A stretch of DNA of 64,000 bases, taken from NCBI GenBank assembly GCA_039586795.1, contig JBDHJS010000027.1, positions 1-64,000 of the forward strand, in the 5' to 3' direction. A model generated the notes under the pieces. It was given only the letters and a program-made list of their open reading frames with translations. It was not told where the DNA came from and made no database searches. The translations under genes were made by a program, and so were the position numbers. This document shows positions 5,700 to 58,308 of the stretch, piece by piece. The DNA is from Gemmatimonadota bacterium (GTDB lineage: Bacteria > Gemmatimonadota > Gemmatimonadetes > Palauibacterales > KS3-K002). The first letter of the stretch is position 1, and each line of letters opens with the position of its first letter.

Positions 5700-5728
5700 T
5701 TGCCATTTCGGCTGAGTCGTTGCATAGT
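5700..5728 (+). promoter_or_regulatory. sigma70-like promoter TTGCCA-N17-CATAGT of leader cassette copy 1
   Basis: Identical hexamers and 17-nt spacer recur at 9351-9379. Confidence 0.65.
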
Positions 5729-5740
5729 GGCCACATACTG

Positions 5741-5799
5741 GTAGGTGGGCTGAGGACGTCGAACGTTCCCGCTGACTGGAGTCCTCAGTCGTGGCAGTA
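5741..5799 (+). promoter_or_regulatory. Conserved 5'-leader hairpin motif, copy 1
   Basis: AGGTGGGCTGAGGACG...GGAGTCCTCAGTCGTG; stem GGCTGAGGAC/GTCCTCAGTC; homologous to 9389-9444 (+) and 23322-23379 (-). Confidence 0.75.
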
Positions 5800-5919
5800 C
5801 GACATGCAGTACCTCGCCGCTCGATCTGGCCAGCACGCCTTGCGTGTTGGTGTAGACTAACGCCGATCGCAAGAGCTTCACGATTTTTCCGCAGAGAGCG
5901 TGCACCGCCTCCTTGCTAA
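5791..5919 (+). CDS. Putative RAPP-motif leader (arrest) peptide, 42 aa: MAVRHAVPRRSIWPARLACWCRLTPIARASRFFRRERAPPPC
   Basis: GGAG 9 nt before GTG; RAPPP at codons 37-41; gapless homology with the uORF at 23156..23329, mostly via synonymous codons. Below the ORF-track length cut-off. Confidence 0.65.
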   Translation: MAVRHAVPRRSIWPARLACWCRLTPIARASRFFRRERAPPPC

Positions 5920-5979: not shown

Positions 5980-6276
5980 ATGCCTCAGGTTGCTACAGAA
6001 GTACTCACCATAGACATCAGGGTCATCGACGGTAAGATCTACTGCCCGAATCGACGCGCGAGTAAGTACGACGAGGTCTTCTGGGTGTGTGACACCCATC
6101 ACTGGCGCGTCGAGTTCAACAAGGGCGGAAGCCCCTTCACGGCGCTTGGCTTCGGAAACAAGCCAGGGGCGAAGGAGGGAGATCTCGTGGAGTGGCCCGG
6201 AGTATACGACTACACGGTCTATGCCGAGGGTTGCGAGCCGCTCGATCCGGTACTGAGAGTAGATGAAGAGATCTGA
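5980..6276 (+). CDS. Small beta-rich hypothetical protein, 98 aa, possibly cupredoxin-like fold
   Basis: GGGAGG RBS at 5968-5973, coding-like codon usage, GVYDYTV...LDP C-terminal pattern, 3 Cys plus HH; no signal peptide. Confidence 0.75.
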   Translation: MPQVATEVLTIDIRVIDGKIYCPNRRASKYDEVFWVCDTHHWRVEFNKGGSPFTALGFGNKPGAKEGDLVEWPGVYDYTVYAEGCEPLDPVLRVDEEI

Positions 6277-6330: not shown

Positions 6331-9087
6331 CTACCCAACGAGCTCCTGGAAGCGGGGGTCGTTTCTCAAGGGTTCCCACCACCAGTCGACCTTGCCAACG
6401 TACTCCTTACTTCCCGGCACGGCCTCGAGGTGCCGTTCCAGCAACTGCAATGCCTCATCTGTCTCTCCGAGCAGTAGTCGGACGTAGGCCTCGTTGTAGT
6501 CGTGCATAGGATCGGGCTCCGCCACCGCGGCGCGTGCCAGGTCAATCACGGCTCGTGCGCTGTCACTCGAGCCGGCGCGGGCCAATACGGCGGCGACATA
6601 CATCAGGGTCGAGGGTCGGAGCCTTACGCTCGCCTGTGGCGGGCTATACTCCAGGAGTTCCTCGGCAAGCTCCCAAGCTGTCGTCACATCGGGTTCGGGT
6701 CCACCAGCCGAGGCAAGAGCCAGCAGCTGACTGTTGATGAGGGTGCGGTTCTGCGGATAGGCCTCACGCCCTTCGGTGCATCGTCGATCTGCCTCGTCCC
6801 ACTCGCGCAGCTCGATCAGGGTGTGGCACAGTCGAGCGTAGGCCTGGCCGCGCCGTTCGTAGAACTGGTCGACTTCGATAGCCCGCTCGGCGGCATACCG
6901 AGCTTCCTCCAGGTCACCGCCCAACCGTAGGACATTGGACAGGGTTTCCCACGCGTGGGCATCATTTGGATCGATCGTTGTGGCGGTCCGTAGATCCTGC
7001 TCGGCCATCTGCCGCTGGGCTACCGCTTCCTCCTCGTCCACCGCCTCCCGCAGCCAGTAACGCAGGTTCCCGCGAAGGGCGAGCGCTCGTGCGTTTTCAG
7101 GATCGAGTTCGAGGGCCCGGTCAGTCAAAGCGATCCCGCCATACAACATGCTTGGATCACGCCTGCGAACGCTTCTGCCCAGGATTCTGGCGCGCTCGTA
7201 CATGATCCAACCGCGTTCGACAATCGGGTCAGCCCATCCATCGTCGATCCGATTCGCGTCGGCGAACATCGAGTCGGCCCGATCGTACGTTGCCAGAGCC
7301 AGTTCGGGGGACCCCTCGGTGCGTAGGTCTTTCGCTTCGCTGACCCACTCGCGCCCATAGGCATAGAGCTCCCAGGCCGCGTTGCTTTCGGTGGCCGCCA
7401 TACGCTCCAGGTCGCGAAGTATGACCCCGAGCTCCACACGCAGAGCCCGAGAGACCTCGGCGCCCAAATCGTCAAGCAAGGCGAGTGTTTCGACGCGCGG
7501 CCTCTGGTGTCGCGCGCTGTGGACCACGACGCGTCGGTTGGCGTCGAACAGTCTGACCGTAATGCGGATGTCGTCCTGAAAAGCGATGATCGTTCCCTCG
7601 ATCAGGGTGCCTGCTTCCAGATCGCCGATCACGCTGTCGAGGACGACATCCGCCCCGCTGTATCGTTTGACCGCCGAATAGGGAAGCACCTCGAGTACGT
7701 CGATATGGCTGAGTTGATCGATCAATGCCTCGGGAATGGCGAGCGCCAGGTGACCCAAAACCTGCCCTTCGCTCTGGTCGTCGAACGGCAACACGGCGAT
7801 CCGCGTCGGGTGCAAAGCCGAGGCGGCTTCAGTCCCCACCGCGGCGCCGGAGGAGCCGACGATTCGTATTCCAACCAGCAGCGCGATGATCAGAGCGGCT
7901 AGCGCGGCCAGGAGATGTGCCGGCCTGGCTCGCACCGCCCACCGTCTCCAGCTGCGCCGCAACGCCGGCTCGCTGGGTGAAATCACGGGGTCGTCCTGCG
8001 TCCAGGATGCTGACAATACCAGCGGAAGGCCGAGGGCGAGGACAATCGGGAGCGCCGTTAGAGCCCACCGTCCGACTGTTCCGGAGTCGACAAGCCTGCC
8101 GGTCAACTCCAGCGCCAGCCAGGCGCACGCGACGTAGGCTAGACCGATATGCAGTACGAGGCGGTCCCTAAGCTCGCGCAGAATCCACTTCGCCCTCTGA
8201 ATCGGATGTTCGGGGAGCAACTGAGGGCGCAGTGCCCCACCGTTGCTATTGGCCGGCAAGAGGCTGGCGCAGAATTCATCGGTTGTCGAGAAACGATCCT
8301 TCGGAGCTTTGGCGAGTGCCTTTCTCAAGGTGGCCGATACCGTCTTCGGCACAGAGGGACGTACGCTGTGAATCGGGCGCGGTCGCTCTATCATGTGGCG
8401 CGCGATGATGCCCTGCGGTGTTTGCCCCGTAAACGGTGGCTCGCCTGCCAGCATCTCGTAAAGCACACAGGCCAGTGAATAGATGTCGGTCCGCGTATCA
8501 AGCTCGGTCTCCCCGCTGGCCTGCTCTGGACTCATGTAGGTCGGCGTGCCGACGAAGACCCCGCTCTGAGTCATACGCTCGCCGCCGGCTTCGTCGATCG
8601 CGCTCGCGATGCCGAAGTCCGCGAGAACCGCATGACGTTCCGATAGCAGAATGTTCTCCGGCTTCACGTCCCGGTGTACGACGCCGTGGCTGTGCGCGTA
8701 ACTCAACGCGTCGGCAACCTCGTTCGTGATGCGGATCGCGTCATACAGCGTCAACCGCTTCTCTCTATCGAGGCGATCCCGTAATGACTCGCCCTCCACA
8801 AAGGGCATGACGTAGTAGAGAAACCCGCTCGCCTCACCCGAGTCGTGTAGCGGCAGAATGTTGGTGTGTTGGAGACGCGCCTCGATCCCGATCTCGCGCA
8901 GAAAGCGCTCGCCCCCCAGCATCGAGGCCAGTTCCGGATGCAGGACCTTGATCGCTACGAATCGCTTGTGCTTGAGATCTTCGGCCAGGTAGACAGTCGC
9001 CATCCCGCCGCGACCGACTTCTCTCTCGAACCGGTAACGATCGGACAGGGCCGACTGTAGGCAGGCAAGCACATCCAATCCGGTCAC
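6331..9087 (-). CDS. Ser/Thr protein kinase with TM segments, TolB-like domain and TPR repeats
   Basis: GRGGMA, VAIK, HRDVKPEN, DFG and GTPTYMSPEQ motifs; ELRDRLV...YVACAW TM module; IAVLPF TolB_N-like motif; TPRs; ends LRNDPRFQEL. Confidence 0.93.
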   Translation of the reverse strand: MTGLDVLACLQSALSDRYRFEREVGRGGMATVYLAEDLKHKRFVAIKVLHPELASMLGGERFLREIGIEARLQHTNILPLHDSGEASGFLYYVMPFVEGESLRDRLDREKRLTLYDAIRITNEVADALSYAHSHGVVHRDVKPENILLSERHAVLADFGIASAIDEAGGERMTQSGVFVGTPTYMSPEQASGETELDTRTDIYSLACVLYEMLAGEPPFTGQTPQGIIARHMIERPRPIHSVRPSVPKTVSATLRKALAKAPKDRFSTTDEFCASLLPANSNGGALRPQLLPEHPIQRAKWILRELRDRLVLHIGLAYVACAWLALELTGRLVDSGTVGRWALTALPIVLALGLPLVLSASWTQDDPVISPSEPALRRSWRRWAVRARPAHLLAALAALIIALLVGIRIVGSSGAAVGTEAASALHPTRIAVLPFDDQSEGQVLGHLALAIPEALIDQLSHIDVLEVLPYSAVKRYSGADVVLDSVIGDLEAGTLIEGTIIAFQDDIRITVRLFDANRRVVVHSARHQRPRVETLALLDDLGAEVSRALRVELGVILRDLERMAATESNAAWELYAYGREWVSEAKDLRTEGSPELALATYDRADSMFADANRIDDGWADPIVERGWIMYERARILGRSVRRRDPSMLYGGIALTDRALELDPENARALALRGNLRYWLREAVDEEEAVAQRQMAEQDLRTATTIDPNDAHAWETLSNVLRLGGDLEEARYAAERAIEVDQFYERRGQAYARLCHTLIELREWDEADRRCTEGREAYPQNRTLINSQLLALASAGGPEPDVTTAWELAEELLEYSPPQASVRLRPSTLMYVAAVLARAGSSDSARAVIDLARAAVAEPDPMHDYNEAYVRLLLGETDEALQLLERHLEAVPGSKEYVGKVDWWWEPLRNDPRFQELVG

Positions 9088-9350: not shown

Positions 9351-9444
9351 TTGCCAATCGCATTCGAGCGTTACATAGTTGCGGCATAGGGAGGTGGGCT
9401 GAGGACGAACTCTCCTCCAACAGGAGTCCTCAGTCGTGTTAGTA
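9351..9444 (+). promoter_or_regulatory. Leader cassette copy 2: promoter TTGCCA-N17-CATAGT plus conserved hairpin
   Basis: AGGTGGGCTGAGGACG (9392-9407) and GGAGTCCTCAGTCGTG (9423-9438) are identical to copy 1. Confidence 0.75.
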
Positions 9445-9711
9445 AAAGACGGAGAAGCTCACCAACAGCGCGGGCCTGGACCGGTACGTCATGCCGCTCG
9501 GCCTGTTCCATCCCACGCGGTCACGAGTTCACTGAAAAAGGTCGTGGCCGCCGTCGAGACCCGTGGCAGGAGTTCAGACAAAAAACTCGGCCGCGGGTAT
9601 TCTTGTTTTCAACTTGATTGCCGCGCGACAGAGTATGGGGGCAGAGGGCTCAGGTTCTCGAGGCCGGAGGCTTACGGCACCTGACCGTACGGTGCACCGG
9701 AGGTGGTACGG

Positions 9712-12784: not shown

Positions 12785-14521
12785 ATGCCGCCTTTTCTGC
12801 AGCGTCTGAGGGAGCGCAAGATCGTCCAGTGGGCGGTAGCGTATCTAGCGGGCGCATGGGCCATCATGGAGGTCGCCGGGTACGTGGGCGACCAGTTCAG
12901 CTGGCCCGCGGTAGTTGGGCAGGTCATCACCGTTCTGGCGGTCGTCGGTTTCTTCCTCACGCTCGTGCTCGCCTGGTACCACGGCGAGAAAGGCCGCCAG
13001 CGGGTCAGCGGACCCGAGCTGTTGATGGTCGCGGCGCTGCTGCTCATTGCGGCGGTCGCCGTGTCGCTGATTCCCGGCTCTGAGGAAGGCGCGACATCGT
13101 CAGCACCTTTCCGGACCCCGGCCGGCAGCGGCCGTCCGGCCATCGCCGTTCTCTCCTGCGAGAACTTCAGTCCCGATCCGACCGATGCCTCGTTCGCCAA
13201 TGGGATGCACGACGAGATCCTCGTCCGCCTCTCGAAGATCTCGGGGCTCAGCACGATCGGGCGTGAAACCGTCGAGTGGTATCGAGACCATCCACGTCCG
13301 ATGAGGGAGATGGTGGCGGAGCTTGGTGTCGGCTTCATCGGCGAGTGCAGCGTGCGGAAGGACCAGAGCCAGAACCAGATCCGCGTCACTTTCCAGCTGA
13401 TCGACGGGAATACGGGCAGCCAGATCTGGGCCGAGAACTACGACCGCAGCCTGACTGCCTCATCTATTTTTGCCATCCACAGCGATGTCGCGCAGCAAGT
13501 CGCTCGGGCAGTGGGCGCCGTGCTGACGCCTGAGGAACAAGCGCGCATCGGTACACGACCCACGGAAAGCCTGGACGCCTACACGGCGAACTCCATCGGC
13601 CGTGTCTGGCTGTCGCGCCGCGGGACCCAGGGCAGTGAGGCGTTGGAGCAAGCCATCGCCCGGTTCGAGGAAGCTTTGCAGCACGACAGCGCCTTCGCCC
13701 CGGCCTACGCTGGCCTGGCGACGGCCTACCTGTTGTCGCCGTTCTATGGGGAGTTCGTGCCCGGCGATGTGGCGTATCAGCGAGCGGCCGACGCCGTGCA
13801 GGCGGCGCTGCGGCTCAACCCCGATCTTGCGGAGGCTCACACCGCGCTGGCGTTCTTGAACATTAATTATGAATGGGAATGGCAGGCGGGCGAGCGGGGC
13901 TATCGCCGCGCCATCGAGCTCGATCCCGGCTTCGCCACCACCTATCAGTGGTTCGGCTTCTACTTCATCACCATGCGGCGCTTCGACGACGCGCAGGAGT
14001 CGATGCGCACCGCGCTGCGTATCGAACCGCTTTCGCCGATCATCAACGAAGACTACGGCGACGCGTACTACTACGATCGCGACTACGAAAGAGCGATCGA
14101 GCAGTACGAGCGGACGCTTGCCCTATTCCCCGCTCGACAGTCCACCCACATCATGCTGGGCCTGGCTTTGCTTCAGCTTCAGCGGTACGAGGAGGCCAGA
14201 GAACAACTGCTGCTCGGGCTCGGCGACACGGAGGGGCCGCCGCAGCTACCCGGGGCGGGAGCGCTCTCCGTCGTCTATTCCAGGTTGGGCGATTCGGACG
14301 CGGCTCAGGAGATCGTCGACCGTTCGGCCGGCGGCACGATTCAGATGCGGCTATTCTCCTATGCCGGAACCGAGGACGTGGATGGCGCGTTCGAGATGAT
14401 CGATCTAGCCGTCGATCAACGCGCGCCCTGGTTGTGGCGCGTGACCGTAGATCCGCTGTTCGACTTCCTGAGATCGGACTCCCGCTACGACGACCTGCTG
14501 AGCAAGATGGGACTCGATTAA
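12785..14521 (+). CDS. TolB-like/TPR membrane protein without a kinase domain
   Basis: RLRERKIVQWAVAYLAGAW TM module, IAVLSCENFS TolB_N-like domain, TPRs, DPLFDFLRSDSRY C-terminus. Confidence 0.88.
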   Translation: MPPFLQRLRERKIVQWAVAYLAGAWAIMEVAGYVGDQFSWPAVVGQVITVLAVVGFFLTLVLAWYHGEKGRQRVSGPELLMVAALLLIAAVAVSLIPGSEEGATSSAPFRTPAGSGRPAIAVLSCENFSPDPTDASFANGMHDEILVRLSKISGLSTIGRETVEWYRDHPRPMREMVAELGVGFIGECSVRKDQSQNQIRVTFQLIDGNTGSQIWAENYDRSLTASSIFAIHSDVAQQVARAVGAVLTPEEQARIGTRPTESLDAYTANSIGRVWLSRRGTQGSEALEQAIARFEEALQHDSAFAPAYAGLATAYLLSPFYGEFVPGDVAYQRAADAVQAALRLNPDLAEAHTALAFLNINYEWEWQAGERGYRRAIELDPGFATTYQWFGFYFITMRRFDDAQESMRTALRIEPLSPIINEDYGDAYYYDRDYERAIEQYERTLALFPARQSTHIMLGLALLQLQRYEEAREQLLLGLGDTEGPPQLPGAGALSVVYSRLGDSDAAQEIVDRSAGGTIQMRLFSYAGTEDVDGAFEMIDLAVDQRAPWLWRVTVDPLFDFLRSDSRYDDLLSKMGLD

Positions 14522-16950
14522 TCCTCCCGCAGGGCCACCATCGGATCCACACGCGTTGCTTTCAACGCGGGCACCGCGCACGCCCCCAGCGCCACGGTGG
14601 CCAGCACGAGCGTGATGCCGGCAAACGTGATCGGGTCCGTGCCACCGATCTCGAACAGCAAGCCCGACATCAGCCGCGTCGTGGCTAGGGCGAGGGCCAG
14701 CCCGACGCCAAGCCCGACGCCGGCGATCAGCATCCCGCGCGCCAGAATCCAGCCGAGTACTTGTCGGCGATCAGCGCCCAGTGCCATCCGCATCCCGATC
14801 TCTCGCGTACGTTCCGCCACCATGTACGAGAGTACGCCGTACACGCCAATCCCGGCCAGTAGAAGAGCGACAACAGCGAAGCTTCCAAGCAGCACCATCG
14901 TGAAACGGCGGTCGGCCACGTTGCTCGCAACGACCTCTTGTAGCGAGCGGATACTGAAGACCGGCAGTTGAGGTGCCAACTGTGCTATCGCACTTCGCGC
15001 TTCGCCTGCCAGAGCCTCCGGTTCGCGCTCCGTGTGCACGACGAGGCTCATGCCCCAGTCCTGGAAGTGGCCGAACTCAGCTTGCGGGAGTGTCATGTAG
15101 GCCATCGGTGTGGGTGCAATATCCAACGCGTTGTGTCGGACTTGGCCGACGACCCCGACGATGGTGTACCAGCGAGCCTGGGGGTCTGGCTGACGGTTGA
15201 ACGAGATTCTTCGACCTATCGGGTCTTCGTTGGGCCAGTAGCGTTGCGCGGCGCTGCGGTCGATGACGATGGCGTACTGGTTGTTCGCATCATCGCTTGG
15301 AGAGAATGTGCGACCTTGCAGGACGGGAATGCCGATGGCCCTGAAGTAGTCCCCGGACACCACACGCACGCTCGCCACCGGCTGGTCATCCGGTTCGAAC
15401 GTTTGGCCCTCCATCCAGAAACTGCTGAACCACCAGCTGCCCGAAACCGGCAGCACGTTGATCGCGGCGACGGCAGAGGCGCCGGGTAGCCCTTCCATTC
15501 GCTCGATCAGTTCGTCGTAGAACGCGACGGCCTGGTCGCGCTCTGGTAACGCCTTCATCGACGGCGCGACTCGAAGCGTGAGTCGTCTCTCGCTCTCGAA
15601 GCCCGGGTCGACGGTGAGTAACCGCGCGAAACTTCTGACCATGAGCCCGGCACCGGCGAGCACGACGAGTGCCAACGCCAGCTCGGCGATCACGAGCGTA
15701 CTTCGCACCCGATTGCGACCAGCGCCCACACTCCCACGCGCCCCTTCCTTCAAGGCCTCCGCCGGCGCCCTCTCGCTTGCCCGATAAGCGGGGAGCGCGC
15801 CGAACAGAAGGCCGGTGACGACGATGAGCGCGACCGAGTACCCGAGCACCGCGGGATCGATCCCCAGCTCATCGATCCGCGGGATACCGGATGGTGCCGC
15901 CCGCACGAAGACGGGTATGATGAGGGCGGCAAGCGCCAGCCCGAGCGCGCCACCGACGGTCGAGATTGCCAGGCTCTCGGTGAGCAGTTGGCGGACCAGC
16001 CTGCCGCGGCCCGCACCGATCGCCGCCCGGATGGCCAACTCGCGCTCGCGTCGGGTCGACCGGGCGAGCAAGAGATTCGCTACGTTCACGCAAGCGATGA
16101 GCAGGACCAGGCCGATGGAAGCCCAGATCAACAGCAAGATCGGCTTCACATCGCTGACGATACTGGCGCGAAGCGGTTCCAAGAAGACTCGCCAATCCGA
16201 GTTGGTCTTCGGATAGGCTGATGCCAGTCGCTGGGCGATCGCCTCCATCTCCGCTGAAGCCTCGGACAATGTCCGTCCTGGTGCCAGCTCAGCCACAACG
16301 CCGACCCACCGGGCCCCGCGGCCCCCCATCTCGTCGGCCGGCCGTCCGAACGTCTTCCACAGGTCCACATTAGCGCTAGGGAAGCGGAAGCCACTGGGCA
16401 TGACGCCGACGACCTCGAGCGGTCGACTATCAAGAAAGACCGTCTGGCCCACGACGTCGCCTCGTCCTCCCAATGCGCGCTGCCAGAACTCATAGCTCAC
16501 GACAACGACCCCGTCGTTGCCGGGCAGATTCTCATCCGTACGCAGGGCGCGACCTATTATGGGAGACGTGCCGAGCGCCGAGAACATGCTGGGACTCACC
16601 ATGGCGTAGGCGACGCGCTCCGGCCGATCGCCGCCGCTCAGATTTCCCCGGCCCACCCAGTAAGCGGCCATGTTCTCTAACGTGCGGCTTTCTTCCCGCC
16701 AGTCCTCGAAGTCTTGAAGCGAGGCACCGAAGCGTAGCCAGCCGCGCTCCGGGTTCGAACCCCACACCAGCGTGACCCGCTCGCCGTTGCCGTAAGGCAG
16801 CGGGCGGAGAATTACACCTCGGACCACACTGAAAACTGCCGTGTTCGCGCCGATACCCAGGGCCAGAGTCAATACTACTGTGGCTGTGAAGCCGGGGCGC
16901 CGGAGTAGGGAGCGCCAGCTGTGGCGAAGATCCTGGATTAGATTGGTCAT
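14518..16950 (-). CDS. ADOP-type duplicated ABC permease (MacB/FtsX-like)
   Basis: QDLRHSWRSLLRRPGF..LTLALGIGANTAVFS, LLIACVNVANLLL, RTREIGMRMALGA and ATRVDPMVALR motifs. Confidence 0.93.
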   Translation of the reverse strand: MTNLIQDLRHSWRSLLRRPGFTATVVLTLALGIGANTAVFSVVRGVILRPLPYGNGERVTLVWGSNPERGWLRFGASLQDFEDWREESRTLENMAAYWVGRGNLSGGDRPERVAYAMVSPSMFSALGTSPIIGRALRTDENLPGNDGVVVVSYEFWQRALGGRGDVVGQTVFLDSRPLEVVGVMPSGFRFPSANVDLWKTFGRPADEMGGRGARWVGVVAELAPGRTLSEASAEMEAIAQRLASAYPKTNSDWRVFLEPLRASIVSDVKPILLLIWASIGLVLLIACVNVANLLLARSTRRERELAIRAAIGAGRGRLVRQLLTESLAISTVGGALGLALAALIIPVFVRAAPSGIPRIDELGIDPAVLGYSVALIVVTGLLFGALPAYRASERAPAEALKEGARGSVGAGRNRVRSTLVIAELALALVVLAGAGLMVRSFARLLTVDPGFESERRLTLRVAPSMKALPERDQAVAFYDELIERMEGLPGASAVAAINVLPVSGSWWFSSFWMEGQTFEPDDQPVASVRVVSGDYFRAIGIPVLQGRTFSPSDDANNQYAIVIDRSAAQRYWPNEDPIGRRISFNRQPDPQARWYTIVGVVGQVRHNALDIAPTPMAYMTLPQAEFGHFQDWGMSLVVHTEREPEALAGEARSAIAQLAPQLPVFSIRSLQEVVASNVADRRFTMVLLGSFAVVALLLAGIGVYGVLSYMVAERTREIGMRMALGADRRQVLGWILARGMLIAGVGLGVGLALALATTRLMSGLLFEIGGTDPITFAGITLVLATVALGACAVPALKATRVDPMVALRED

Positions 16951-17134
16951 CGAGCCCTCGCTAGTGTGGTTCGGTGCCCGTGTATGTTGTCTTAGACGGT
17001 GCACTGGCCCTTGGGGTTGGAACGCCGACTCTACTGCGTGGTCTTTCGGGACCCTTGCTTGCAATGGTGGCCCACAATACCCAGTTTCTTGTCGCTAATC
17101 GTTGAATCTCTTCCAGCAAATCGGAGGACGCGTA

Positions 17135-22571: not shown

Positions 22572-22611
22572 GTCGCAAGACGGTGGCTGGTCTTCGAGAT
22601 ACGGAAGCCAG

Positions 22612-23151
22612 CTAGAAAATGATCCCGGATGCGGCAAACAGCTCAGAGAATGGCGTTGTTTCAATTGCATTGAACCTGATCTGTTTCGTGTGGAAGTCGC
22701 CAGTTCCGTGACCGATTCCTCTCATCGTTACCTGGTAGCCGGTTGACAGCCCTTTGAAGGGTCCTTGGAACATTCCACAAATGCCGTCATAGCATACGTC
22801 CATAGTGACGAAGCCGCGGACGCGGCCGTCACCCGCGGCGTCCTGTGACCCGTTCAGGATGGCCGTAATCGTTCCAACCAGATCGCCATCGACGGTCCCC
22901 GGAACGATACATTTCTTGAAGTGGTTCGTCCCCGTTGCGGGGTCGGGGGTAACACACTCGGGGTTGATGACATTGGGAAACCCGGGTATTGGGCCGCTGA
23001 CGTCGGCTTCGAAAGTGATGGGCGTTGCTTTCTTGACCGCCGTTGCCGAGGGTGTGATTCCGTCAGCTGACAACTCGGTCGGTGTTGGATTGTCACAGCC
23101 CGCAATGAGAAAGGCCAAGGTAAGCATGAAGAAAAGGGCTCGATGCTTCAT
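22612..23151 (-). CDS. Hypothetical lipoprotein, beta-rich
   Basis: Lipobox LIAG-C; GGGAG RBS; four further Cys. Confidence 0.8.
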   Translation of the reverse strand: MKHRALFFMLTLAFLIAGCDNPTPTELSADGITPSATAVKKATPITFEADVSGPIPGFPNVINPECVTPDPATGTNHFKKCIVPGTVDGDLVGTITAILNGSQDAAGDGRVRGFVTMDVCYDGICGMFQGPFKGLSTGYQVTMRGIGHGTGDFHTKQIRFNAIETTPFSELFAASGIIF

Positions 23152-23155
23152 GACG

Positions 23156-23329
23156 TCACTCCCGGTAGACGTTCTGGATCACGCGTGGAAGATGGATGTA
23201 CTGTTGGGGAGGAGGGGCGCGTCGGGGTTTCAGGAACAGTCTCGTTCTGGAGCAAAACACATAGATAGCACTTGCGGACGCAATCGCAGGCTTGCCTGAA
23301 GGGCAGGGTAATACTCCCGGCACTTCCAC
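23156..23329 (-). CDS. Putative RAPP-motif leader (arrest) peptide, 57 aa: MEVPGVLPCPSGKPAIASASAIYVFCSRTRLFLKPRRAPPPQQYIHLPRVIQNVYRE
   Basis: GTG at the same motif position as copy 1; RAPPP at codons 37-41; stop 4 nt before the lipoprotein ATG. Confidence 0.65.
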   Translation of the reverse strand: MEVPGVLPCPSGKPAIASASAIYVFCSRTRLFLKPRRAPPPQQYIHLPRVIQNVYRE

Positions 23330-23417
23330 GGCTGAGGTCCCCGGTCGGAGTATCCGTTCTCGGCCTCAACCCATCTCCCGAAAATACTAACCTGCGATAG
23401 TATTTGTAATTGTGCAA
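23322..23417 (-). promoter_or_regulatory. Leader cassette copy 3: promoter TTGCAC-N17-CAGGTT plus conserved hairpin
   Basis: Minus strand reads GGGAGATGGGTTGAGGCCG...GGGGACCTCAGCCGTGGAAGT; stem GGTTGAGG/CCTCAGCC kept by pairing-compatible changes. Confidence 0.7.
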
Positions 23418-23511
23418 CAAATATCAATTACCGTTAGCGATAAGGAGCAAGAAATCGAGGGGCTACTGAGAATCAGGGCAGCGAGGAATACTCCTCCACG
23501 CGGGGATCGGC

Positions 23512-28346: not shown

Positions 28347-30305
28347 CTATTCCTCTTTATCACCGCGGAGCAATCGGTCGACGTCGCCCCGCGCCTGCAG
28401 CAGCTCGTCGACCTCGCCGGCGACCTCACGTGCGGCCATGAGGTCGCCGGTCATGCTTTCGACGCTGCCGGATCCCGCTTGCATGCGGAGTAAGCCAAGC
28501 CTGATCGTCTCGAGGGCGGCTACCGCATCGGCCAGACGCCCCTGCGTCGCATCCCGAGTGGCGAGCAGATCGTCTTCCAGCTTGCGTTGCTGCTCGGTAA
28601 TGCCCGCACCCACATCAGGGCGCGGCGATTCGTCAAGCGATCGACTCCCTGGCCGATCGATACGAACGCGAGCCAGCACGCCGTTCAGGTTCTCGACCTG
28701 CGTTCGCATCTTCTGCGCGTCGGCTTCCAGCTTGCGTACGACCTCAGGCAGGTCCGTCAGTTGACGCCGCATTGGTTTGGGCAGCTCCTCGAACAGGCGG
28801 TCGGCCTCCATACCGATGGCCATTTCGGTGGGTCGATAGGTGGCCGATCCAACGCTCGTCTTTCGTTTCAGGCCGAGCCCCGCCAGCTTGAAGGTCCACC
28901 TGCCAAGGCGCGACCTCCAGAACCAACCCCGGATCTCGTTCGATATGTCGCGGCGTAGTTGCAGCCGATAAGTAGCGAGTATGCCGGCGCCGATCCCCAC
29001 GGTCATCGAAATCACGACCGTCTGCCCCAGATTCCCGATCCGAAAGCCGTCGAGAAACCAGATCGCGCCTATCCCAAGTGCGGCGGTCCCGAGCCCGACT
29101 GCTGAGATGAGACGAACCACGCGCTCGTAGAGCGAAGGCTTGGTCCCGAACTCGAAGGCGCCCTCTTCACGGGCGCGTTCGTGTTCCACTTTTAGTGCGG
29201 CAATCACGTCGTCCGTGTCGTAGCCGGACTTGATCAGCCGGCGCGCCTTGCGCGTGACAATCCCGGCGGGCACGACGGTTATGCCGAGCCCGAAAGTCCC
29301 GAAACCGACCAGCGCGCCGAAATTACCGCCGAAGATTGCCCCTAGTGTCATCGAGATCGCCGCGAGGGTCCAACCCAGGATGACTACGCCGCCCACTCCG
29401 ATGCGCTTATCCCGCTTCACGAAGATTCGTAGCGGCACGGGTAGCTCTCGGCGTTCGCCCAGTGATTGGCCGAACGCGTCCGCCAGTTCGTGTTCGTTCG
29501 TGAACCGCGACGCCGGGTTCTTTGCCAGGCAACTATCAATGGTGCGCGCTAGCCGGCCGGGCACGTTCGGCGCGACGGAGGCCACCGGGGGCGCCGGCTT
29601 GTTGATGTGCTTGCCGAGAATCGCCGCTGGCGTCGACCCTTCGAACGGCAAGTTCCCGCTCAGCGCGTAGTAGCCCACGACGCCCAGCGAGTAGATGTCG
29701 CAGGCCGGACCCACCGGCTTGCCCATCGCCTGTTCCGGGCTCATGAACTCGGCGGTGCCCGAGACTTGTGCCATGCTTCCGGTTTCGGCGCTCTCCGCGA
29801 CGCTGGCGATGCCGAAGTCGGCGACCAGGGCCCGGCCCGTGCCGGACTCGATGAGAATGTTGTCGGGCTTCACGTCCCGATGAACGACGCCGTGGTCGTG
29901 GGCGTAGGCGAGGGCCCAGGCGACCTCGCGGAGCGTGCGCGCCACCTCCGTCGGCGGCCGCGGCCCGCGGCTGCGGATCCGTTCGCCCAGCGATTCGCCG
30001 TCGATGTACGCCATGGCGAACATCACAAAGTCGTCGACTTCATCGACAGAGAAGATTGGAACGATGTTTGGGTGGGAGAGCTTGGCCGCCGTTCGCGCTT
30101 CCCGTAGGAACCGCTCCCGAGCCGCCGGCTGGGCCGCCAGCTCCGGGGGGAGCAGCTTGAGCGCCACCGGGCGGTCCAGGCTGACCTCCCGGGCCAGGTA
30201 GACGATCCCCATACCCCCGCGCCCCAGCTCACTTTCCAGGGAGTAGCGGCCGGCAAGTGCTTGCTGGAGTTGGATGTACTGGGTGCTGGGCTGATCGTTA
30301 ATCAC
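28347..30305 (-). CDS. Ser/Thr protein kinase with membrane segments and C-terminal coiled coil
   Basis: GRGGMG, VALK, HRDVKPDN, DFG and GTAEFMSPEQ motifs; 4 TM-like segments. Confidence 0.92.
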   Translation of the reverse strand: MINDQPSTQYIQLQQALAGRYSLESELGRGGMGIVYLAREVSLDRPVALKLLPPELAAQPAARERFLREARTAAKLSHPNIVPIFSVDEVDDFVMFAMAYIDGESLGERIRSRGPRPPTEVARTLREVAWALAYAHDHGVVHRDVKPDNILIESGTGRALVADFGIASVAESAETGSMAQVSGTAEFMSPEQAMGKPVGPACDIYSLGVVGYYALSGNLPFEGSTPAAILGKHINKPAPPVASVAPNVPGRLARTIDSCLAKNPASRFTNEHELADAFGQSLGERRELPVPLRIFVKRDKRIGVGGVVILGWTLAAISMTLGAIFGGNFGALVGFGTFGLGITVVPAGIVTRKARRLIKSGYDTDDVIAALKVEHERAREEGAFEFGTKPSLYERVVRLISAVGLGTAALGIGAIWFLDGFRIGNLGQTVVISMTVGIGAGILATYRLQLRRDISNEIRGWFWRSRLGRWTFKLAGLGLKRKTSVGSATYRPTEMAIGMEADRLFEELPKPMRRQLTDLPEVVRKLEADAQKMRTQVENLNGVLARVRIDRPGSRSLDESPRPDVGAGITEQQRKLEDDLLATRDATQGRLADAVAALETIRLGLLRMQAGSGSVESMTGDLMAAREVAGEVDELLQARGDVDRLLRGDKEE

Positions 30306-35172: not shown

Positions 35173-37824
35173 ATGTTTAGTCGAATCAAATCCGCTTTCG
35201 ATGCGCTGTTCCACGGCGCCCGGTTCCGCCAGGAACTCGACGAAGAGATGGCATTTCATATAGACGCGCTGACGGAGGACCTGATCAGGTCGGGGATGAG
35301 TCCGGAGGAGGCGCGTCGTCAGGCTCGAATTCGCTTTGGCAGCGTTGAGGGCGTGCAGTCCCGCAGCCGCGAGGCTCGAGGCGTTCACCTGATCGACGAA
35401 GCTGTGCGTAACCTGCGGTTCGCGTTCCGCAGTTTGGTGCGTAACCCGCTTTTCACGGCGACCTTCGTGATAACATTGGGGCTGTGCATCGGAGCCGGCA
35501 CGGCGGTCTACAGCGTGGTGGACGCTGTGCTCTGGCGGCCATTGCCGTATCCGGATTCGGATCGCCTGGCGCTAGCGGTGCAGTTCGACCCAGCCCTTGG
35601 AATCGACCCCGGCAGGTTGGCGATTACAGGGGCGGTGTGGGAGCGCATTCGCGATGGCGGCGATTTCTTGGAAGACAAGGCCCCATTTCGCGACTGGCCG
35701 ACCGGAGTGAACCTCACGGCAGATGGCGTAGCCTCTTTCGTGCAGCAGCAACGGGTGGCAGCGGGGTTCTTCCGTACGCTCGGCGTCTCTCCTCTCATTG
35801 GCCGGGAGTTCGGATCGGCCGAAGACGTGCCCGGTGGTGCGGCGGTGACGATGCTGAGTTACGAGCTCTGGACGCGGACGTTCGAGCAGGACCCTGACGT
35901 CGTCGGTCGGACGATACGGTTGAAAGGCGAGGCGCACACCGTGGTTGGGGTGATGCCGCAAGGGTTTCAGTCGAGCAGTCCCGCCGATCTCTGGACACCC
36001 CTGCGCCCTTCGCGAACAGGTGAGGGGAGTGGGTCAAACTATCGGCTCCTTGTACGCTTGCCCGAAGGGATGAACTGGGCCGAGGCGCAGACTCGCATGG
36101 GGAATATCGATACGGGGCCGCCCCCGGCGGAAGACGCGCCAGAGCGCCAGTACGGCCTCATCCCCCTCAACCGCGCGCTTACCTGGGGAATGCGCCAGCC
36201 GCTGTTGATGCTTTTGGGCGCGATCCTCGTGATGTTGCTGGTAGGCTGCGCGAACCTGGCGGGGTTGCAGATTGCCCGAGCGCTGGCGCGCCGACCCGAG
36301 ATCGCCACCCGGCAGGCGCTCGGCGGAGGCACGGGGGCCATCCTGCGGCAGGTGGTGACGGAGAATGTCGTCCTCGGTCTGCTGGGGGGTCTCGCAGGAC
36401 TGGCTTTTGCCGGCTATGGGATAAAAGGCCTCGAAGCGCTGATGCGCGCCTCCTTCGATACCTGGCAGACGTTCCAGATGGATGGTCGCGTCATCGCTGC
36501 CGGCGCCGGCTTCACAGCTCTGGCAACGCTCTTCTTCGGTCTCGCCCCGATGTTGCAGGTGCGCAGGTTCGATGTGCGTGGTGTGCTGGCCGGCTCGTCA
36601 CGAAGCGTGATGGGAGGCAGCGCTCACCATCTGCGCAAGGCGTTGCTGGTTGGCCAGGTTGCGCTCGTTACCGCGCTGCTCTTCGGCGCGGGGCTTCTAC
36701 TGCGCAGCTACGCCCGCCTGGACCGGCTTGATCCCGGATTCGACCCGAGCGGCGTGATCTCGGCGCAGTTCTCTCTGAACGACGCACGATACGGAAGTGC
36801 GGAAGACGTTAATCGCTTCTTCGACGAGAGTCTGGCCAGAATCCGTAGCGCGCCCGGGGTGGTCAGTGCCGCCGTGGCGCTGACGCTACCCTACGAGCGG
36901 CCGCTCAACATGCCGTTCAAAATCGTAGGGGTGGAGGATCCTCCCGGTAGTTATCGGATAGTAAACGTCGTGTATGTGACGCCGGGCTTCTTCGAGACGA
37001 TGGGGATCCCACTTCTCAGAGGACGCGATCTCAGCGCGGCGGATATCGGAGAACGGCCGCCGGTTGCGGTGGCAAATCAGGCGTTTCTCGAGGCCAACTC
37101 CGCGGATGATGTGGGGATCGGCACGCGCATCGCGTTCAGCAGCCGTGAGTGGGAGATCGTCGGGATCTCTGGCGGTGTGCTGCAGGCCCCCGGGTGGGGG
37201 TCAACGCAACCCGTCTGGAAGTCGCCGACGCTGTACGTGGCGGCTGCCCAGGCAGGGAACGGTCTCTTTGGGACCCACATCTGGTTTTCGCCGAGCTGGC
37301 TGGTGAAGACCACCGGTAGCCCCGCTGGACTCGCGGCGGCGGTGACGAACGCTGTCCGAGATGTCGATCCCAATCTGCCGGTCGCCCGACTCGCCTCGGT
37401 GGAAGAGGTGATGAAGGCAGCCCTCGCGCGTCAGCGCTTCGAGGCGGTGTTCTTGGTCGTCGTTGCCGCCTTCGCCTTGCTGCTTGCCGTCATCGGTCTT
37501 TACGGCATCGTCGCGAACGAGGTGGTCGAACGCACGCCGGAGATGGGTCTGCGGATGGCCCTCGGTGCGGCGCCCGGCAAAGCTGTCTGGATTATCGGTG
37601 CCCGCGGCTTGCGACTGACCGTCATTGGGCTGGCCTTGGGGGCTGGACTGGCGGCGTTGAGTTCGTCGTGGCTACGCAGCGCGGTCTGGGGCATCGTTTC
37701 TTACGACCCGCTCACGGTGGTATTCGTTGTGCTGTGCATGTCGGCGCTGGCTGCGGTCGCAAGTTTCCTGCCGGCCGCGCGGATCGCGCGGTTGGAGCCA
37801 TCGCGGATTTTGCGCGAGGAGTAG
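35173..37824 (+). CDS. ADOP-type duplicated ABC permease with permease-prefix domain
   Basis: ELDEEMAFH...GMSPEEARRQARIRFG prefix; CANLAGL and RTPEMGLRMALGA motifs. Confidence 0.93.
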   Translation: MFSRIKSAFDALFHGARFRQELDEEMAFHIDALTEDLIRSGMSPEEARRQARIRFGSVEGVQSRSREARGVHLIDEAVRNLRFAFRSLVRNPLFTATFVITLGLCIGAGTAVYSVVDAVLWRPLPYPDSDRLALAVQFDPALGIDPGRLAITGAVWERIRDGGDFLEDKAPFRDWPTGVNLTADGVASFVQQQRVAAGFFRTLGVSPLIGREFGSAEDVPGGAAVTMLSYELWTRTFEQDPDVVGRTIRLKGEAHTVVGVMPQGFQSSSPADLWTPLRPSRTGEGSGSNYRLLVRLPEGMNWAEAQTRMGNIDTGPPPAEDAPERQYGLIPLNRALTWGMRQPLLMLLGAILVMLLVGCANLAGLQIARALARRPEIATRQALGGGTGAILRQVVTENVVLGLLGGLAGLAFAGYGIKGLEALMRASFDTWQTFQMDGRVIAAGAGFTALATLFFGLAPMLQVRRFDVRGVLAGSSRSVMGGSAHHLRKALLVGQVALVTALLFGAGLLLRSYARLDRLDPGFDPSGVISAQFSLNDARYGSAEDVNRFFDESLARIRSAPGVVSAAVALTLPYERPLNMPFKIVGVEDPPGSYRIVNVVYVTPGFFETMGIPLLRGRDLSAADIGERPPVAVANQAFLEANSADDVGIGTRIAFSSREWEIVGISGGVLQAPGWGSTQPVWKSPTLYVAAAQAGNGLFGTHIWFSPSWLVKTTGSPAGLAAAVTNAVRDVDPNLPVARLASVEEVMKAALARQRFEAVFLVVVAAFALLLAVIGLYGIVANEVVERTPEMGLRMALGAAPGKAVWIIGARGLRLTVIGLALGAGLAALSSSWLRSAVWGIVSYDPLTVVFVVLCMSALAAVASFLPAARIARLEPSRILREE

Positions 37825-55847: not shown

Positions 55848-55893
55848 CAGGGCATCTCAACTGGGGTGAAACCGCTGAACGTGAGTGTTCGCA

Positions 55894-58308
55894 ATGTTCG
55901 ACAGGCTAAGACAGGACATACTCTACGCCTTCCGCCAGCTCCGGGTCCGGCCCGGTCTATCCATCGCTGCCGTATTGACCCTGGCGCTGGGAATCGGTGC
56001 CAACGGGGCGATCTTCAGCGTGGTAAACGGAGTGCTGCTCAGGCCGCTACCCTACGGGGACCCGGATGAGCTCACTGCTGTGTGGCATCAAGAGGGTCCG
56101 GGTGGCGATCTCGTATCCGTGTCCTACGAGAACTTCCAGGACTGGCGAGCGGAGACCGAGACATTCGCGGATATGGCGGCGTTCAGCCGTTCGACCGTGA
56201 CGTTGCTCACCGATGATGTGGCGGAACGCTTGCCCGGGGCGATGATCACGCCGAACACGTTCCGGCTCCTGAGAATTCCACCGGCTCTGGGCCGAGACTT
56301 TGTCGCGGATGACGCGATCGACGGTGCGACCCCGGTCGTGATGTTGAGTCACGGCCTGTTCATGGGCGCGTTTGGTGGCGACGCTGGGATGATTGGTAGC
56401 ACGCTGCGGTTGAGTGGCGTCGAGCATCAGGTGATCGGCGTGATGCCCGCAGGTTTCCGTACGCCTTTCTTCGAAGAGGCGGAGCTATGGCGACCGATGG
56501 GTGACGATGCGGCGTGTGGCAGGGGTTGCTGGTTCGCCCGCGTGGTTGGTCGGCTCGAGCCCGGCACTTCTCTCGAGGAGGCGCAGGCCGAGCTCGATGT
56601 AGTGGGAGAGCGCCTGCAAACAGAATACCCGGATGCTAACGCCGATGTGCGAGTAGCCGCCGTCGGGCTGCGCGATGAAATAGTAGGCGATGTGCGGCCC
56701 GCTTTGCTCGTCATCCTGGTGGGCGTCGGCCTTGTTCTGCTGATCGCGTGCGTCAATGTTGCGAACCTTTTGTTGGCCCGAGCCATCGCCAGAGAACGCG
56801 AAGTTGCGGTGCGTGCCGCCTTAGGCGCTTCACGGGGCCGCATCACCAAGCAGTTGTTGACCGAGAGCGTCGTGCTGGCGCTGGTCGGTGGATTGGCCGG
56901 CGTGTACGTAGCCTATATGGCGGTTGACGCGCTGATCGTGCTGGCACCTCAAGATCTGCCACGTCTCGATGTAGTCCGTGTGGATGGGCTGGTGCTCGCC
57001 GCGATGACGGTGCTGACGACGGGTACCGGTGTACTCTTTGGCCTCGTCCCCGCTTTTCACGCAAGCCGTGCCGACGCCGGCGGCGCGTTGGGGAGCGATC
57101 GTTCGGTCGCTGGCCGTCAGAGCAGAGGCCGGCTCCGCGATGCTCTGGTTGTGTCGCAGATGGCTCTGGCGGTTACGCTGCTGGTTGGCGCCGGGCTTTT
57201 GCTCAAGAGCTTCGTCACGCTCGTGCGCGTGGACCCGGGTTTCGATCCCCGCGGTCTGCTGACCGCTGAGACCCGGTTCTCCGGCGAGCGCTACTCGGGC
57301 CCCGCGCGCCTGGATTTCTACGAAGAGCTGTTCACGCGAATGGAAGCGCGACCCGATGTCGACGCAGCAGCCGGCGTCTGGCTGCTGCCGTTCACGACGG
57401 GAGCGGTCATCTCCAGCATTGAAGTCGAAGGGCGACCCGACGTTGCGCCGACGGAAGAGCCCGAGGCTTCAATGCGGCCGGTAACCGACGGTTACTTCGA
57501 ACTGATGCGTATCCCGCTCGTCGCTGGTCGACGATTGCAGCGATCGGATGACACGAACACGCAACGCGTCGTGGTGATCAGCGAATCGATGGCTCGGGAC
57601 ATATGGGCCGACGAAGATCCGATCGGCCGTCAAATCCGCTTCGGCATGCAGTTCGAGGACTCCGAGCCATGGCGCGAGGTCGTCGGCGTTGTCGGCGATG
57701 TGAAACTGCGTGGCCTGGATGACGAAGACCGCGCCATTGCGTACGTACCTTATCGCCAATTCACTATCGGGTCACTCGCCGTGGCGCTGCGAACCGCAGG
57801 CGACCCGGCAGAGCTGGCCGCTCCGTTTCGAGCCACGGTTCGTTCCATCGATCCGCAGGTCGCGGTCTACGATGTGTCCACCATGGACCGCCTCGTCGCC
57901 GCTTCGCTGGCCGAGCGCCGGTTCTTCATGTTACTGCTCGGACTGTTCGCGGCACTCGCGGCAATCCTGGCCAGCGTGGGGATATATGCGGTGACCAGCT
58001 ATGTGGTTGGTAGCCGCACCCGGGAGATGGGAATTCGTATCGCCGTCGGCGCCCAGGCCGGCGAGGTACAACGCGGTGTGCTGACCCGAGCCGGTAGTGT
58101 CGCTGCCCTCGGCCTGGCTATTGGTTTGGCCGCCGCTTTCGGCCTGACGCGCCTCATGCGCAGTCTGCTGTTCGAGACATCGCATGTCGACCCGCTCGTA
58201 TTCTCAGGCATGGCAGCGCTGCTCGCCGGCGTCGCCCTGTTGGCTGCCTGGTTGCCGGCGCGTCGGGCCTCTCGCGTCGATCCGATGATCGCGCTGCGAC
58301 AGGAATGA
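55894..58308 (+). CDS. ADOP-type duplicated ABC permease
   Basis: QDILYAFRQLRVRPG, LALGIGANGAIFS, ACVNVANLLL and RASRVDPMIALR motifs. Confidence 0.93.
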   Translation: MFDRLRQDILYAFRQLRVRPGLSIAAVLTLALGIGANGAIFSVVNGVLLRPLPYGDPDELTAVWHQEGPGGDLVSVSYENFQDWRAETETFADMAAFSRSTVTLLTDDVAERLPGAMITPNTFRLLRIPPALGRDFVADDAIDGATPVVMLSHGLFMGAFGGDAGMIGSTLRLSGVEHQVIGVMPAGFRTPFFEEAELWRPMGDDAACGRGCWFARVVGRLEPGTSLEEAQAELDVVGERLQTEYPDANADVRVAAVGLRDEIVGDVRPALLVILVGVGLVLLIACVNVANLLLARAIAREREVAVRAALGASRGRITKQLLTESVVLALVGGLAGVYVAYMAVDALIVLAPQDLPRLDVVRVDGLVLAAMTVLTTGTGVLFGLVPAFHASRADAGGALGSDRSVAGRQSRGRLRDALVVSQMALAVTLLVGAGLLLKSFVTLVRVDPGFDPRGLLTAETRFSGERYSGPARLDFYEELFTRMEARPDVDAAAGVWLLPFTTGAVISSIEVEGRPDVAPTEEPEASMRPVTDGYFELMRIPLVAGRRLQRSDDTNTQRVVVISESMARDIWADEDPIGRQIRFGMQFEDSEPWREVVGVVGDVKLRGLDDEDRAIAYVPYRQFTIGSLAVALRTAGDPAELAAPFRATVRSIDPQVAVYDVSTMDRLVAASLAERRFFMLLLGLFAALAAILASVGIYAVTSYVVGSRTREMGIRIAVGAQAGEVQRGVLTRAGSVAALGLAIGLAAAFGLTRLMRSLLFETSHVDPLVFSGMAALLAGVALLAAWLPARRASRVDPMIALRQE

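Follow-up and report, generated by a model that had tools for sequence, protein, structure and literature searches.

Characterized RAPP arrest peptides are mostly single-locus sensors that carry a localization signal or a metal-binding domain, and in RAPP-type arrest the ribosome stops while its P site carries peptidyl-RAP-tRNA and its A site Pro-tRNA. We compare such systems here with a leader found in a window of 64,000 nt (the whole stretch of DNA analyzed) on contig JBDHJS010000027.1 of assembly GCA_039586795.1, from a Gemmatimonadota bacterium of the family KS3-K002, using the generally known conventions for sigma-70 promoters and lipoboxes.

The leader resembles ApdA, ApdP, ApcA, and SecM, as set out in the portions of PMC10951233 and PMC10987492 covered here, in its RAPP core, its constrained N-terminal residues, and the free sequence that follows; those peptides carry an N-terminal localization signal with a spacer of >30 aa and precede sec/yidC genes, whereas the leader has neither. 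Its RAPP lies 36 residues from the start, and the signal or transmembrane segment plus >30-aa spacer of a secretion monitor is not found. The leader also resembles CruR (BP2923, DUF2946) of Bordetella pertussis, as presented in excerpts of PMC9426467, in placing a RAPP upstream open reading frame (uORF) before envelope genes and, for copies such as copy 2, in a C>G bubble; in the same excerpts, C-rich rut sites have a role in Rho termination, and stalling blocks Rho-dependent termination in the authors' model. CruR is a predicted exported protein of 145 aa that senses copper via CxxC (PMC9426467, in part), whereas the leader here has RAPP at codon 37, lacks a hydrophobic segment in most copies (best 11-aa hydropathy ≤1.2 in 20 of 24 peptides, with no signal sequence), holds a nonconserved CxxC in 1 of 24, has a hairpin preceding its start, and is multicopy. 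None of three uORFs gave a Pfam hit, DUF2946 included, which sets the leader outside the CruR/DUF2946 type.

Like the RAPP/RGPP uORFs in the excerpted text of PMC12992588, which include seven from Streptomyces lividans, the leader lies upstream of non-Sec genes, and some of those uORFs share a RERAPP context with the leader peptides described here; they differ in being mostly secreted or membrane proteins of ≈100 to 200 aa that group by downstream gene. That screen left out uORFs with a downstream gene of unknown function, and its excerpts hold no shared RNA motif or multicopy leader. Finally, the B12 riboswitch of Mycobacterium tuberculosis ppe2 with its uORF, uPPE2, parallels the leader in that a structure masks uORF initiation and the uORF is needed downstream, and departs from it in having a known aptamer and ligand, a single locus, AUGA termination–reinitiation, and no RAPP in the part of PMC11260477 covered. 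A description of the leader or its RNA motif was not found in the partly accessible literature full texts, whose supplements could list some of the uORFs, nor did a term search of the available part of bioRxiv 10.64898/2026.10.21.760802 return any mention of the leader. The leader would work like a RAPP attenuator and is neither a secretion monitor nor a CruR-type leader. The copy at 23149..23417 of the window, referred to as copy 2, and the gene behind it comprise the following features.

23412..23417, minus strand: −35 box TTGCAC, sigma-70-like (family consensus TTGCnn)
23389..23394, minus strand: predicted −10 box CAGGTT, weakly matching the CATAnT of the family consensus; the promoter spacer is 17 nt, and 9 nt lie between CAGGTT and GGGAG
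23375..23379, minus strand: conserved GGGAG, predicted 5′ end of the transcript
23330..23371, minus strand: conserved RNA hairpin, from comparative data
23371-23364 with 23337-23330, minus strand: outer stem P1, 8 bp
23356-23346, minus strand: inner hairpin, enclosed by P1
23350-23347, minus strand: anti-Shine–Dalgarno (anti-SD) segment, inside P1
23342-23339, minus strand: SD-like GGGG of the uORF, inside P1
23156..23329, minus strand: uORF of 57 aa, GTG start at 23329, no signal sequence
23210..23221, minus strand: RAPP, codons 37-40, predicted arrest site, preceded by the family's Phe/Arg-rich stretch
23221-23207, minus strand: RAPPP, codons 37-41
23158-23156, minus strand: TGA of the uORF, 4 nt short of the lipoprotein ATG at 23151
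23152..23249, minus strand: C-rich, G-poor stretch over and after RAPP (32-33 C versus 13-15 G per 78 nt), candidate Rho-loading site
22612..23151, minus strand: predicted lipoprotein gene, 179 aa, lipobox Cys19

An earlier note on this DNA had reported the promoter, hairpin, GTG, uORF, RAPPP, and TGA of copy 2, and all are present as it described them, as is the stop of the copy 1 uORF one codon past RAPPP. The uORF's own SD, on the 3′ side of the hairpin and 9 nt before the start, was absent from that note.

The leader copies and the genes behind them

Copy 2 had been taken for the second of two copies, but the genome holds seven. BLAST, nhmmer, and a pattern search gave two further copies (window position 9397 and contig C86), and a covariance model then brought the count to seven, of which three have RAPP (window positions 5791 and 23329 and contig C8), one has RSPP (contig C62), and three have neither. 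The other copies in the window are as follows.

5700..5919, plus strand: copy 1, with its promoter at 5700-5728, hairpin at 5748-5790, and 42-aa RAPP uORF at 5791-5919
5980-6276, plus strand: gene after copy 1, 98 aa, no signal peptide
9397..9684, plus strand: copy 3, absent from the earlier note, with its hairpin at 9397-9435 and an 82-aa GTG uORF without RAPP, followed by a TonB–MotA/ExbB–ExbD–ExbD gene cluster

The regions of copies 1 and 2 are homologous beyond chance, which upholds the relationship originally drawn between them: aligned as whole regions and by segment against 1000 dinucleotide shuffles, the whole regions reach a global z of 7.4 and a local z of 11.3 (p 0.001). By segment, the global alignment gives z 7.1 for the hairpin, z 5.4 for the ribosome-binding site (RBS) with its ATG, and z 2.9 for uORF codons 2-41 (local z 0.1; 12 of 40 residues identical), with the promoter (z 0.2) and the post-Pro stretch (z 0.8) at shuffle level. 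The word CCCAACAG, reported as shared after the Pro run, does occur in both copies, but it lies 8 nt out of register between them; among 97 elements, only these two have it at +100..+170. The RBS–ATG word common to copies 1 and 2 has exactly two occurrences in the genome, which fits a duplication of the whole leader through the start codon; no mobility mechanism was seen for the leader. Copy 3 may have arisen by deletion from a leader resembling copy 1: 13 nt of it (9483-9495) match the RBS and start of the gene behind copy 1, and CCAACAG lies just ahead of them.

Exact-pattern scans found 29 stretches in a genome collection and 53 in a metagenome collection, and a promoter-plus-hairpin profile made without the uORF gave 32 true members scores >16 and chance hits scores <6. 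An RNA-only profile yielded 102 distinct elements, from which a chance hit (L058) and a duplicate (L217) were removed to leave 100 distinct leader copies in all; most, not all, of the family hits were retrieved for this set, and fractions given here use the subsets of elements with enough unmasked sequence. Up to 18 element hits occur in a single genome, and some elements form divergent or tandem pairs (G015:C1 at 1789880/1790111 and 3431631/3432321, G424:C1 at 1514901/1516707, and L011). Named records of true members read Gemmatimonadota, Gemmatimonadales, and once Gemmatimonadaceae; in this last case (L034), the element may extend slightly beyond the family, or the label of the record may be loose. 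The RNA covariance model matches 26 of the 31 genomes of the window's family (E up to 0.001) and 1 of 150 genomes of the phylum outside it, the latter borderline (E 8e-4) and with its 3′ arm missing on inspection. A profile of the peptide matches 15 of 30 family genomes, 0 of 70 sister-family genomes, 0 of 399 non-family genomes of the phylum, and 5 of 1.84 billion protein representatives (4 inspected, all with the peptide). By these comparisons, the leader is a family-wide, multicopy unit of predicted promoter, RNA, and uORF.

The earlier proposal of one leader standing before unrelated genes is borne out, in that the 92 downstream proteins fall into 56 families and the 24 RxPP leaders precede 19 of them. 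By a simple hydropathy and lipobox rule applied to heuristic gene starts, some of them wrong, 65 of 89 downstream proteins pass as exported and 37 of 89 as lipoproteins, versus 1125 and 218, respectively, of 3038 proteins in the genome; the lipoprotein share of RAPP copies (13 of 22) does not differ significantly from that of RAPP-less copies (27 of 68; p 0.14). A distance of 150 to 205 nt separates the GTG from the gene start in 20 of the 24 copies with RxPP and in 15 of the 68 without it. Pfam leaves most of 66 downstream proteins without a family and places the others in PD40, RCC1, Big_2, TonB-plug, and peptidase domains; SecA, SecDF, and YidC families are found in 0 of these 66 (92 called). 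A search for a common regulator next door found no shared family in the 28 upstream neighbors scanned (40 extracted). In two elements (L185 and L211), the ATG of the element itself starts a DUF4062/NACHT protein, which suggests that the RNA gate can act directly on a main gene with no uORF.

The copy 2 lipoprotein has no Pfam hit and, in the Atlas, only unnamed clusters under 0.9 plus one DUF3224 lead at 0.79; three homologs found elsewhere also follow this leader, which has RAPP in two of these cases. RNA-library contigs from two studies are mismatch-free over 22609-23168 (the lipoprotein gene) and do not cover the leader; they give neither strand nor transcription start, and their runs were selected with the region itself, so they are not counted as evidence. 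Elsewhere, the window holds three duplicated MacB/FtsX-type permease genes (14518-17064, 35173-37824, and 55885-58308), two Ser/Thr kinase genes (6331-9087 and 28347-30305), two PD40-amidohydrolase genes, and several TPR proteins.

Promoter and RNA hairpin

The family promoter follows the pattern TTGCnn and CATAnT with a 17-nt spacer in 84 of 98 elements, usually ends 17 to 18 nt ahead of the stem, and has a mean model score of 13.5 versus 0.5 on shuffles. Copy 2 contains a better sigma-70 match, TTGATA-17-AATACT at 23427-23399, 10 bp upstream of the TTGCAC site; the family spacing nonetheless favors TTGCAC/CAGGTT. Upstream of the −35 box, 95 elements (window ≈23418-23445) show weak periodic TA positions at about −25, −19, −12, and −6, possibly an activator site or an UP-like element.

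The family hairpin spans ≈50 nt, with the 8-bp outer stem P1 closing 23 to 38 nt, within which an inner hairpin can form or a pyrimidine tract can pair with a purine tract. This purine tract, on the 3′ side, is the SD of the uORF, and SD-like words peak 9 nt before the start. Of the single transitions in P1, 65 preserve the pairing as G-U and 15 disrupt it (41 versus 14 without the two pairs left free in the initial pattern), a count biased by the gathering of members with a pattern and a covariance model that both favor pairing, and the G-U bias is best read as supportive of RNA pairing, not as proof. Two-sided compensatory changes in P1 are rare, MAFFT-based pair counts are no better than column shuffles, and among 20 pairings tried, that of the SD with the anti-SD shows weak covariation (z −2.6). 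Taken alone, the copy 2 hairpin has no extra stability over shuffles (z −0.84), so that the structure rests on comparative data. Opening the RBS of the uORF costs a median of 12.9 kcal/mol (14.4 in copy 2) versus 10.0 for the downstream genes. What marks a translational riboswitch, a conserved structure that sequesters the SD or the start region, is found here as a predicted structure derived from search-biased comparative data.

No alternative pairing that opens P1 was found, covariation included, nor any covarying pairing of the hairpin with the first 15 codons or covariation of GGGAG with the anti-SD segment. Several other readings of the region were set aside: GGGAG as an anti-anti-SD or pseudoknot partner (its own partner is not above shuffled, z +2.7, in the wrong direction), selenocysteine read-through of the TGA that lies in the 5′ arm (the distance from stem to start is not constant modulo 3), and a leaderless Met-Gly-stop mini-ORF before the stem (its start triplet is not conserved). 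A DNA palindrome or operator in place of an RNA is disfavored by the variable spacer and the G-U bias. A search of the window against Rfam gave 0 matches at the gathering score, and in 12 loci the element itself drew no match even at E values up to 10.

In four copies (L098, L124, L130, and L102), the upstream hairpin is degenerate, and the SD and 3′ arm are mostly kept. RAPP is intact in L098 and L124 despite the lost hairpin, and the hairpin and peptide modules, as judged from such copies, can decay separately.

The uORF and its RAPP peptide

The triplet after the stem is GTG in 69, ATG in 10, and TTG in 4 of 100 copies. The frame that it opens runs through 40 codons without a stop in 81 of 94 copies, versus 25 and 30 in the other frames. 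Ahead of codon 40, 8 first stops fall in 3044 codons, and beyond it 25 fall in 1182 (0.0026 and 0.021 per codon, respectively, with 0.028 off-frame); constraint in the family is confined to codons 1-40. Among RAPP-less copies, 51 of 64 are still open, above all neutral simulations (0.30-0.64). Of 94 copies, 18 have exact RAPP and 26 have RxPP; the motif almost always falls at codons 32-41, most often at 37 (other frames, 1-3). The motif, originally given as RAPPP, is RAPP; only 4 of 24 copies have Pro as the fifth residue. Nor is the peptide the defining part of the leader, as had been supposed: RAPP is missing from about three quarters of the copies, and conservation is highest in the RNA hairpin.

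Where the motif is kept, several measures point to constraint on the peptide. Over 10 nucleotide-collinear copies, dN/dS is 0.52 in frame versus 0.63-1.24 in the other five frames and is 0.27 for codons 29-40; Arg37 uses all four CGN codons, and the third positions of the Arg and Ala codons of RAPP vary freely. In 10 disjoint pairs, dN/dS is 0.73 (0.55-0.98) overall and 0.53 (0.35-0.90) at the C-terminal end, with a value of 0.98 in the middle of the peptide, which looks neutral. Residue −5 is Phe in 16 and residue −2 is Arg in 19 of 24 RxPP copies, and directly after the two prolines identity is at background (≈0.25-0.3), in agreement with the earlier claim that conservation is limited to the part up to RAPP. 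Copies that keep the motif thus have what is expected of an arrest peptide, namely a RAPP core conserved at the amino acid level, N-terminal constraint, and none after the second Pro. RAPP is also rare in the predicted proteins of the genome, with 9 occurrences versus 14-35 for five permutations. As read from substitution patterns, this analysis shows protein-level selection on RAPP near codon 37, and the conclusion that this leader with an arrest-type motif is a real translated leader is supported.

Models for control of the downstream gene

We propose, by analogy with the systems above, that the hairpin gates the uORF and that a loaded, stalled ribosome would protect the C-rich leader from Rho and thereby let the gene be transcribed, a model to which we give an even chance of being right. 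The conserved hairpin would hide the RBS of the 40-codon uORF until a signal opens it and a ribosome loads; the loaded ribosome would stall at RAPP and keep Rho off the C-rich leader, allowing transcription of the lipoprotein gene, and rare initiation at the hidden GUG start would be converted into long ribosome occupancy. In RAPP-less copies, the same shielding would likely come from plain translation of the open frame. The promoter pattern, outer stem, SD, interchangeable start, 40-codon frame, peptide constraint, and gene distance come from sequence comparison; we infer ribosome stalling at RAPP by analogy to ApdA, ApdP, and CruR, and we likewise infer switching of the hairpin, Rho as the effector, and a stall that turns the gene on.

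This model is favored because the RBS of the uORF is predicted to be gated, rho is present, the leaders are C-rich, and an intrinsic terminator is absent: the genome encodes a canonical rho on contig C53, no intrinsic terminator was found in the copy 2 region, and the leaders are C-richer than 689 control upstream regions (median C−G 11 versus 7 per 78 nt, p 0.0002). A second rho-like gene (G000:C91:103086-104189, 459 bits) scores under the TIGR00767 cut-off. Among the 689 regions, copy 2 ranks at the 96.5th percentile of C-richness, copy 1 at the 45th, and copy 3 at the 13th, and the C>G bubble is strong in copy 2 and its ortholog L138 and modest on average. Counting against this model are the absence of a C-rich bubble in copies 1 and 3, the restriction of RAPP to a minority of copies (18 of 94), the neutral look of the middle of the peptide, the failure to find a pairing that would open P1, and some intact RAPP uORFs that have no clear P1 (L098, L124, and L102). 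Since a stalled ribosome spans only ≈30 nt, the effect could also have the opposite sign. More tentatively, we entertain a wider version in which the hairpin is a new riboswitch class or a protein-bound switch restricted to a single Gemmatimonadota family, the RAPP peptide, signal-less and of tunnel length, latches the ribosome against Rho, and the unit has been copied before >50 unrelated protein families as an envelope regulon that needs no transcription factor of its own.

A translational mechanism of the SecM/ApdA type, in which a ribosome stalled at RAPP melts a hairpin that hides the downstream RBS and Rho plays no part, seems to us unlikely. It would suit the fixed spacing to the gene in RxPP copies, and a simulated footprint eases opening of the downstream RBS by a mean of 1.1 kcal/mol across 18 copies with RxPP, against −0.3 across 21 without it (p 0.016); in copy 2, the fold without a ribosome also pairs C-rich codons near the RBS. 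The gain is nevertheless small in RxPP copies (median 0.75), and neither copy 1 (12.7 to 12.5) nor copy 2 shows it; in copy 2, the footprint over RAPP, which the earlier note had proposed to fold, leaves the opening cost of the lipoprotein RBS unchanged (8.7 to 8.6 kcal/mol), and the sequence past the prolines is at background identity.

We give little credence to a leader in which promoter and hairpin are the working unit, riboswitch-like or protein-bound, with the uORF as a translated spacer and RAPP as an ancestral motif being lost. Besides the large share of copies without RAPP, several copies continue in frame into the gene or supply its start codon directly, and RxPP is scattered on the leader tree, with 21 changes versus 19.9 in shuffles, which fits an ancestral motif probably lost many times (the tree, from 107 columns, is weakly resolved, and L053 is wrongly labeled RAPP-less on it). 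Against this, the copies that keep RAPP show synonymous variation and upstream constraint across 19 downstream families, RAPP is avoided elsewhere in the proteome, and the spacing to the gene is fixed only where RAPP is present.

That arrest instead represses the gene, with the stall uncoupling translation from transcription and exposing the C-rich stretch to Rho, or blocking read-through, until a signal relieves it, looks very doubtful: in copy 2, the C-rich stretch does run 50 nt past a footprint at RAPP and the uORF does end at the lipoprotein RBS, but read-through is not selected, since RxPP tails reach the gene in 13 of 23 copies versus 13.6 by chance, and the peptide carries neither a signal sequence nor a conserved CxxC with which to sense or be pulled. 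Least credible is the relay that the earlier note had drawn for copy 2, termination–reinitiation from the uORF stop to the lipoprotein start, for although the stop lies 4 nt before the ATG and within the RBS, RAPP-less short leaders have uORFs that reach the gene in 19 of 23 cases versus 9.3 expected, and uPPE2 offers a precedent (PMC11260477, in part), the RAPP orthologs of this lipoprotein have uORFs that end 27 nt before (L138) and 149 nt after (L099) the ATG and only 3 of 23 RxPP copies are coupled. Given these ortholog stops and the chance rate of the tails, the 4-nt gap of copy 2 is most likely incidental; reinitiation may hold for some RAPP-less copies only.

The leader is apparently undescribed and probably serves as a common switch for numerous proteins that are unrelated and often exported. 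It offers a minimal RAPP peptide that has neither a signal nor a metal domain, lies downstream of a conserved, predicted RNA gate, and recurs in front of dozens of genes. The RNA motif is a new orphan from a lineage that has barely been cultured, and lipoproteins are overrepresented among its targets. The ≈100 natural variants with and without RAPP may reveal which upstream residues make RAPP stall and how such motifs are kept or lost, and, if the model of a gated uORF with a stalled, Rho-shielding ribosome is true, the leader would be a two-layer switch that spreads as a unit.
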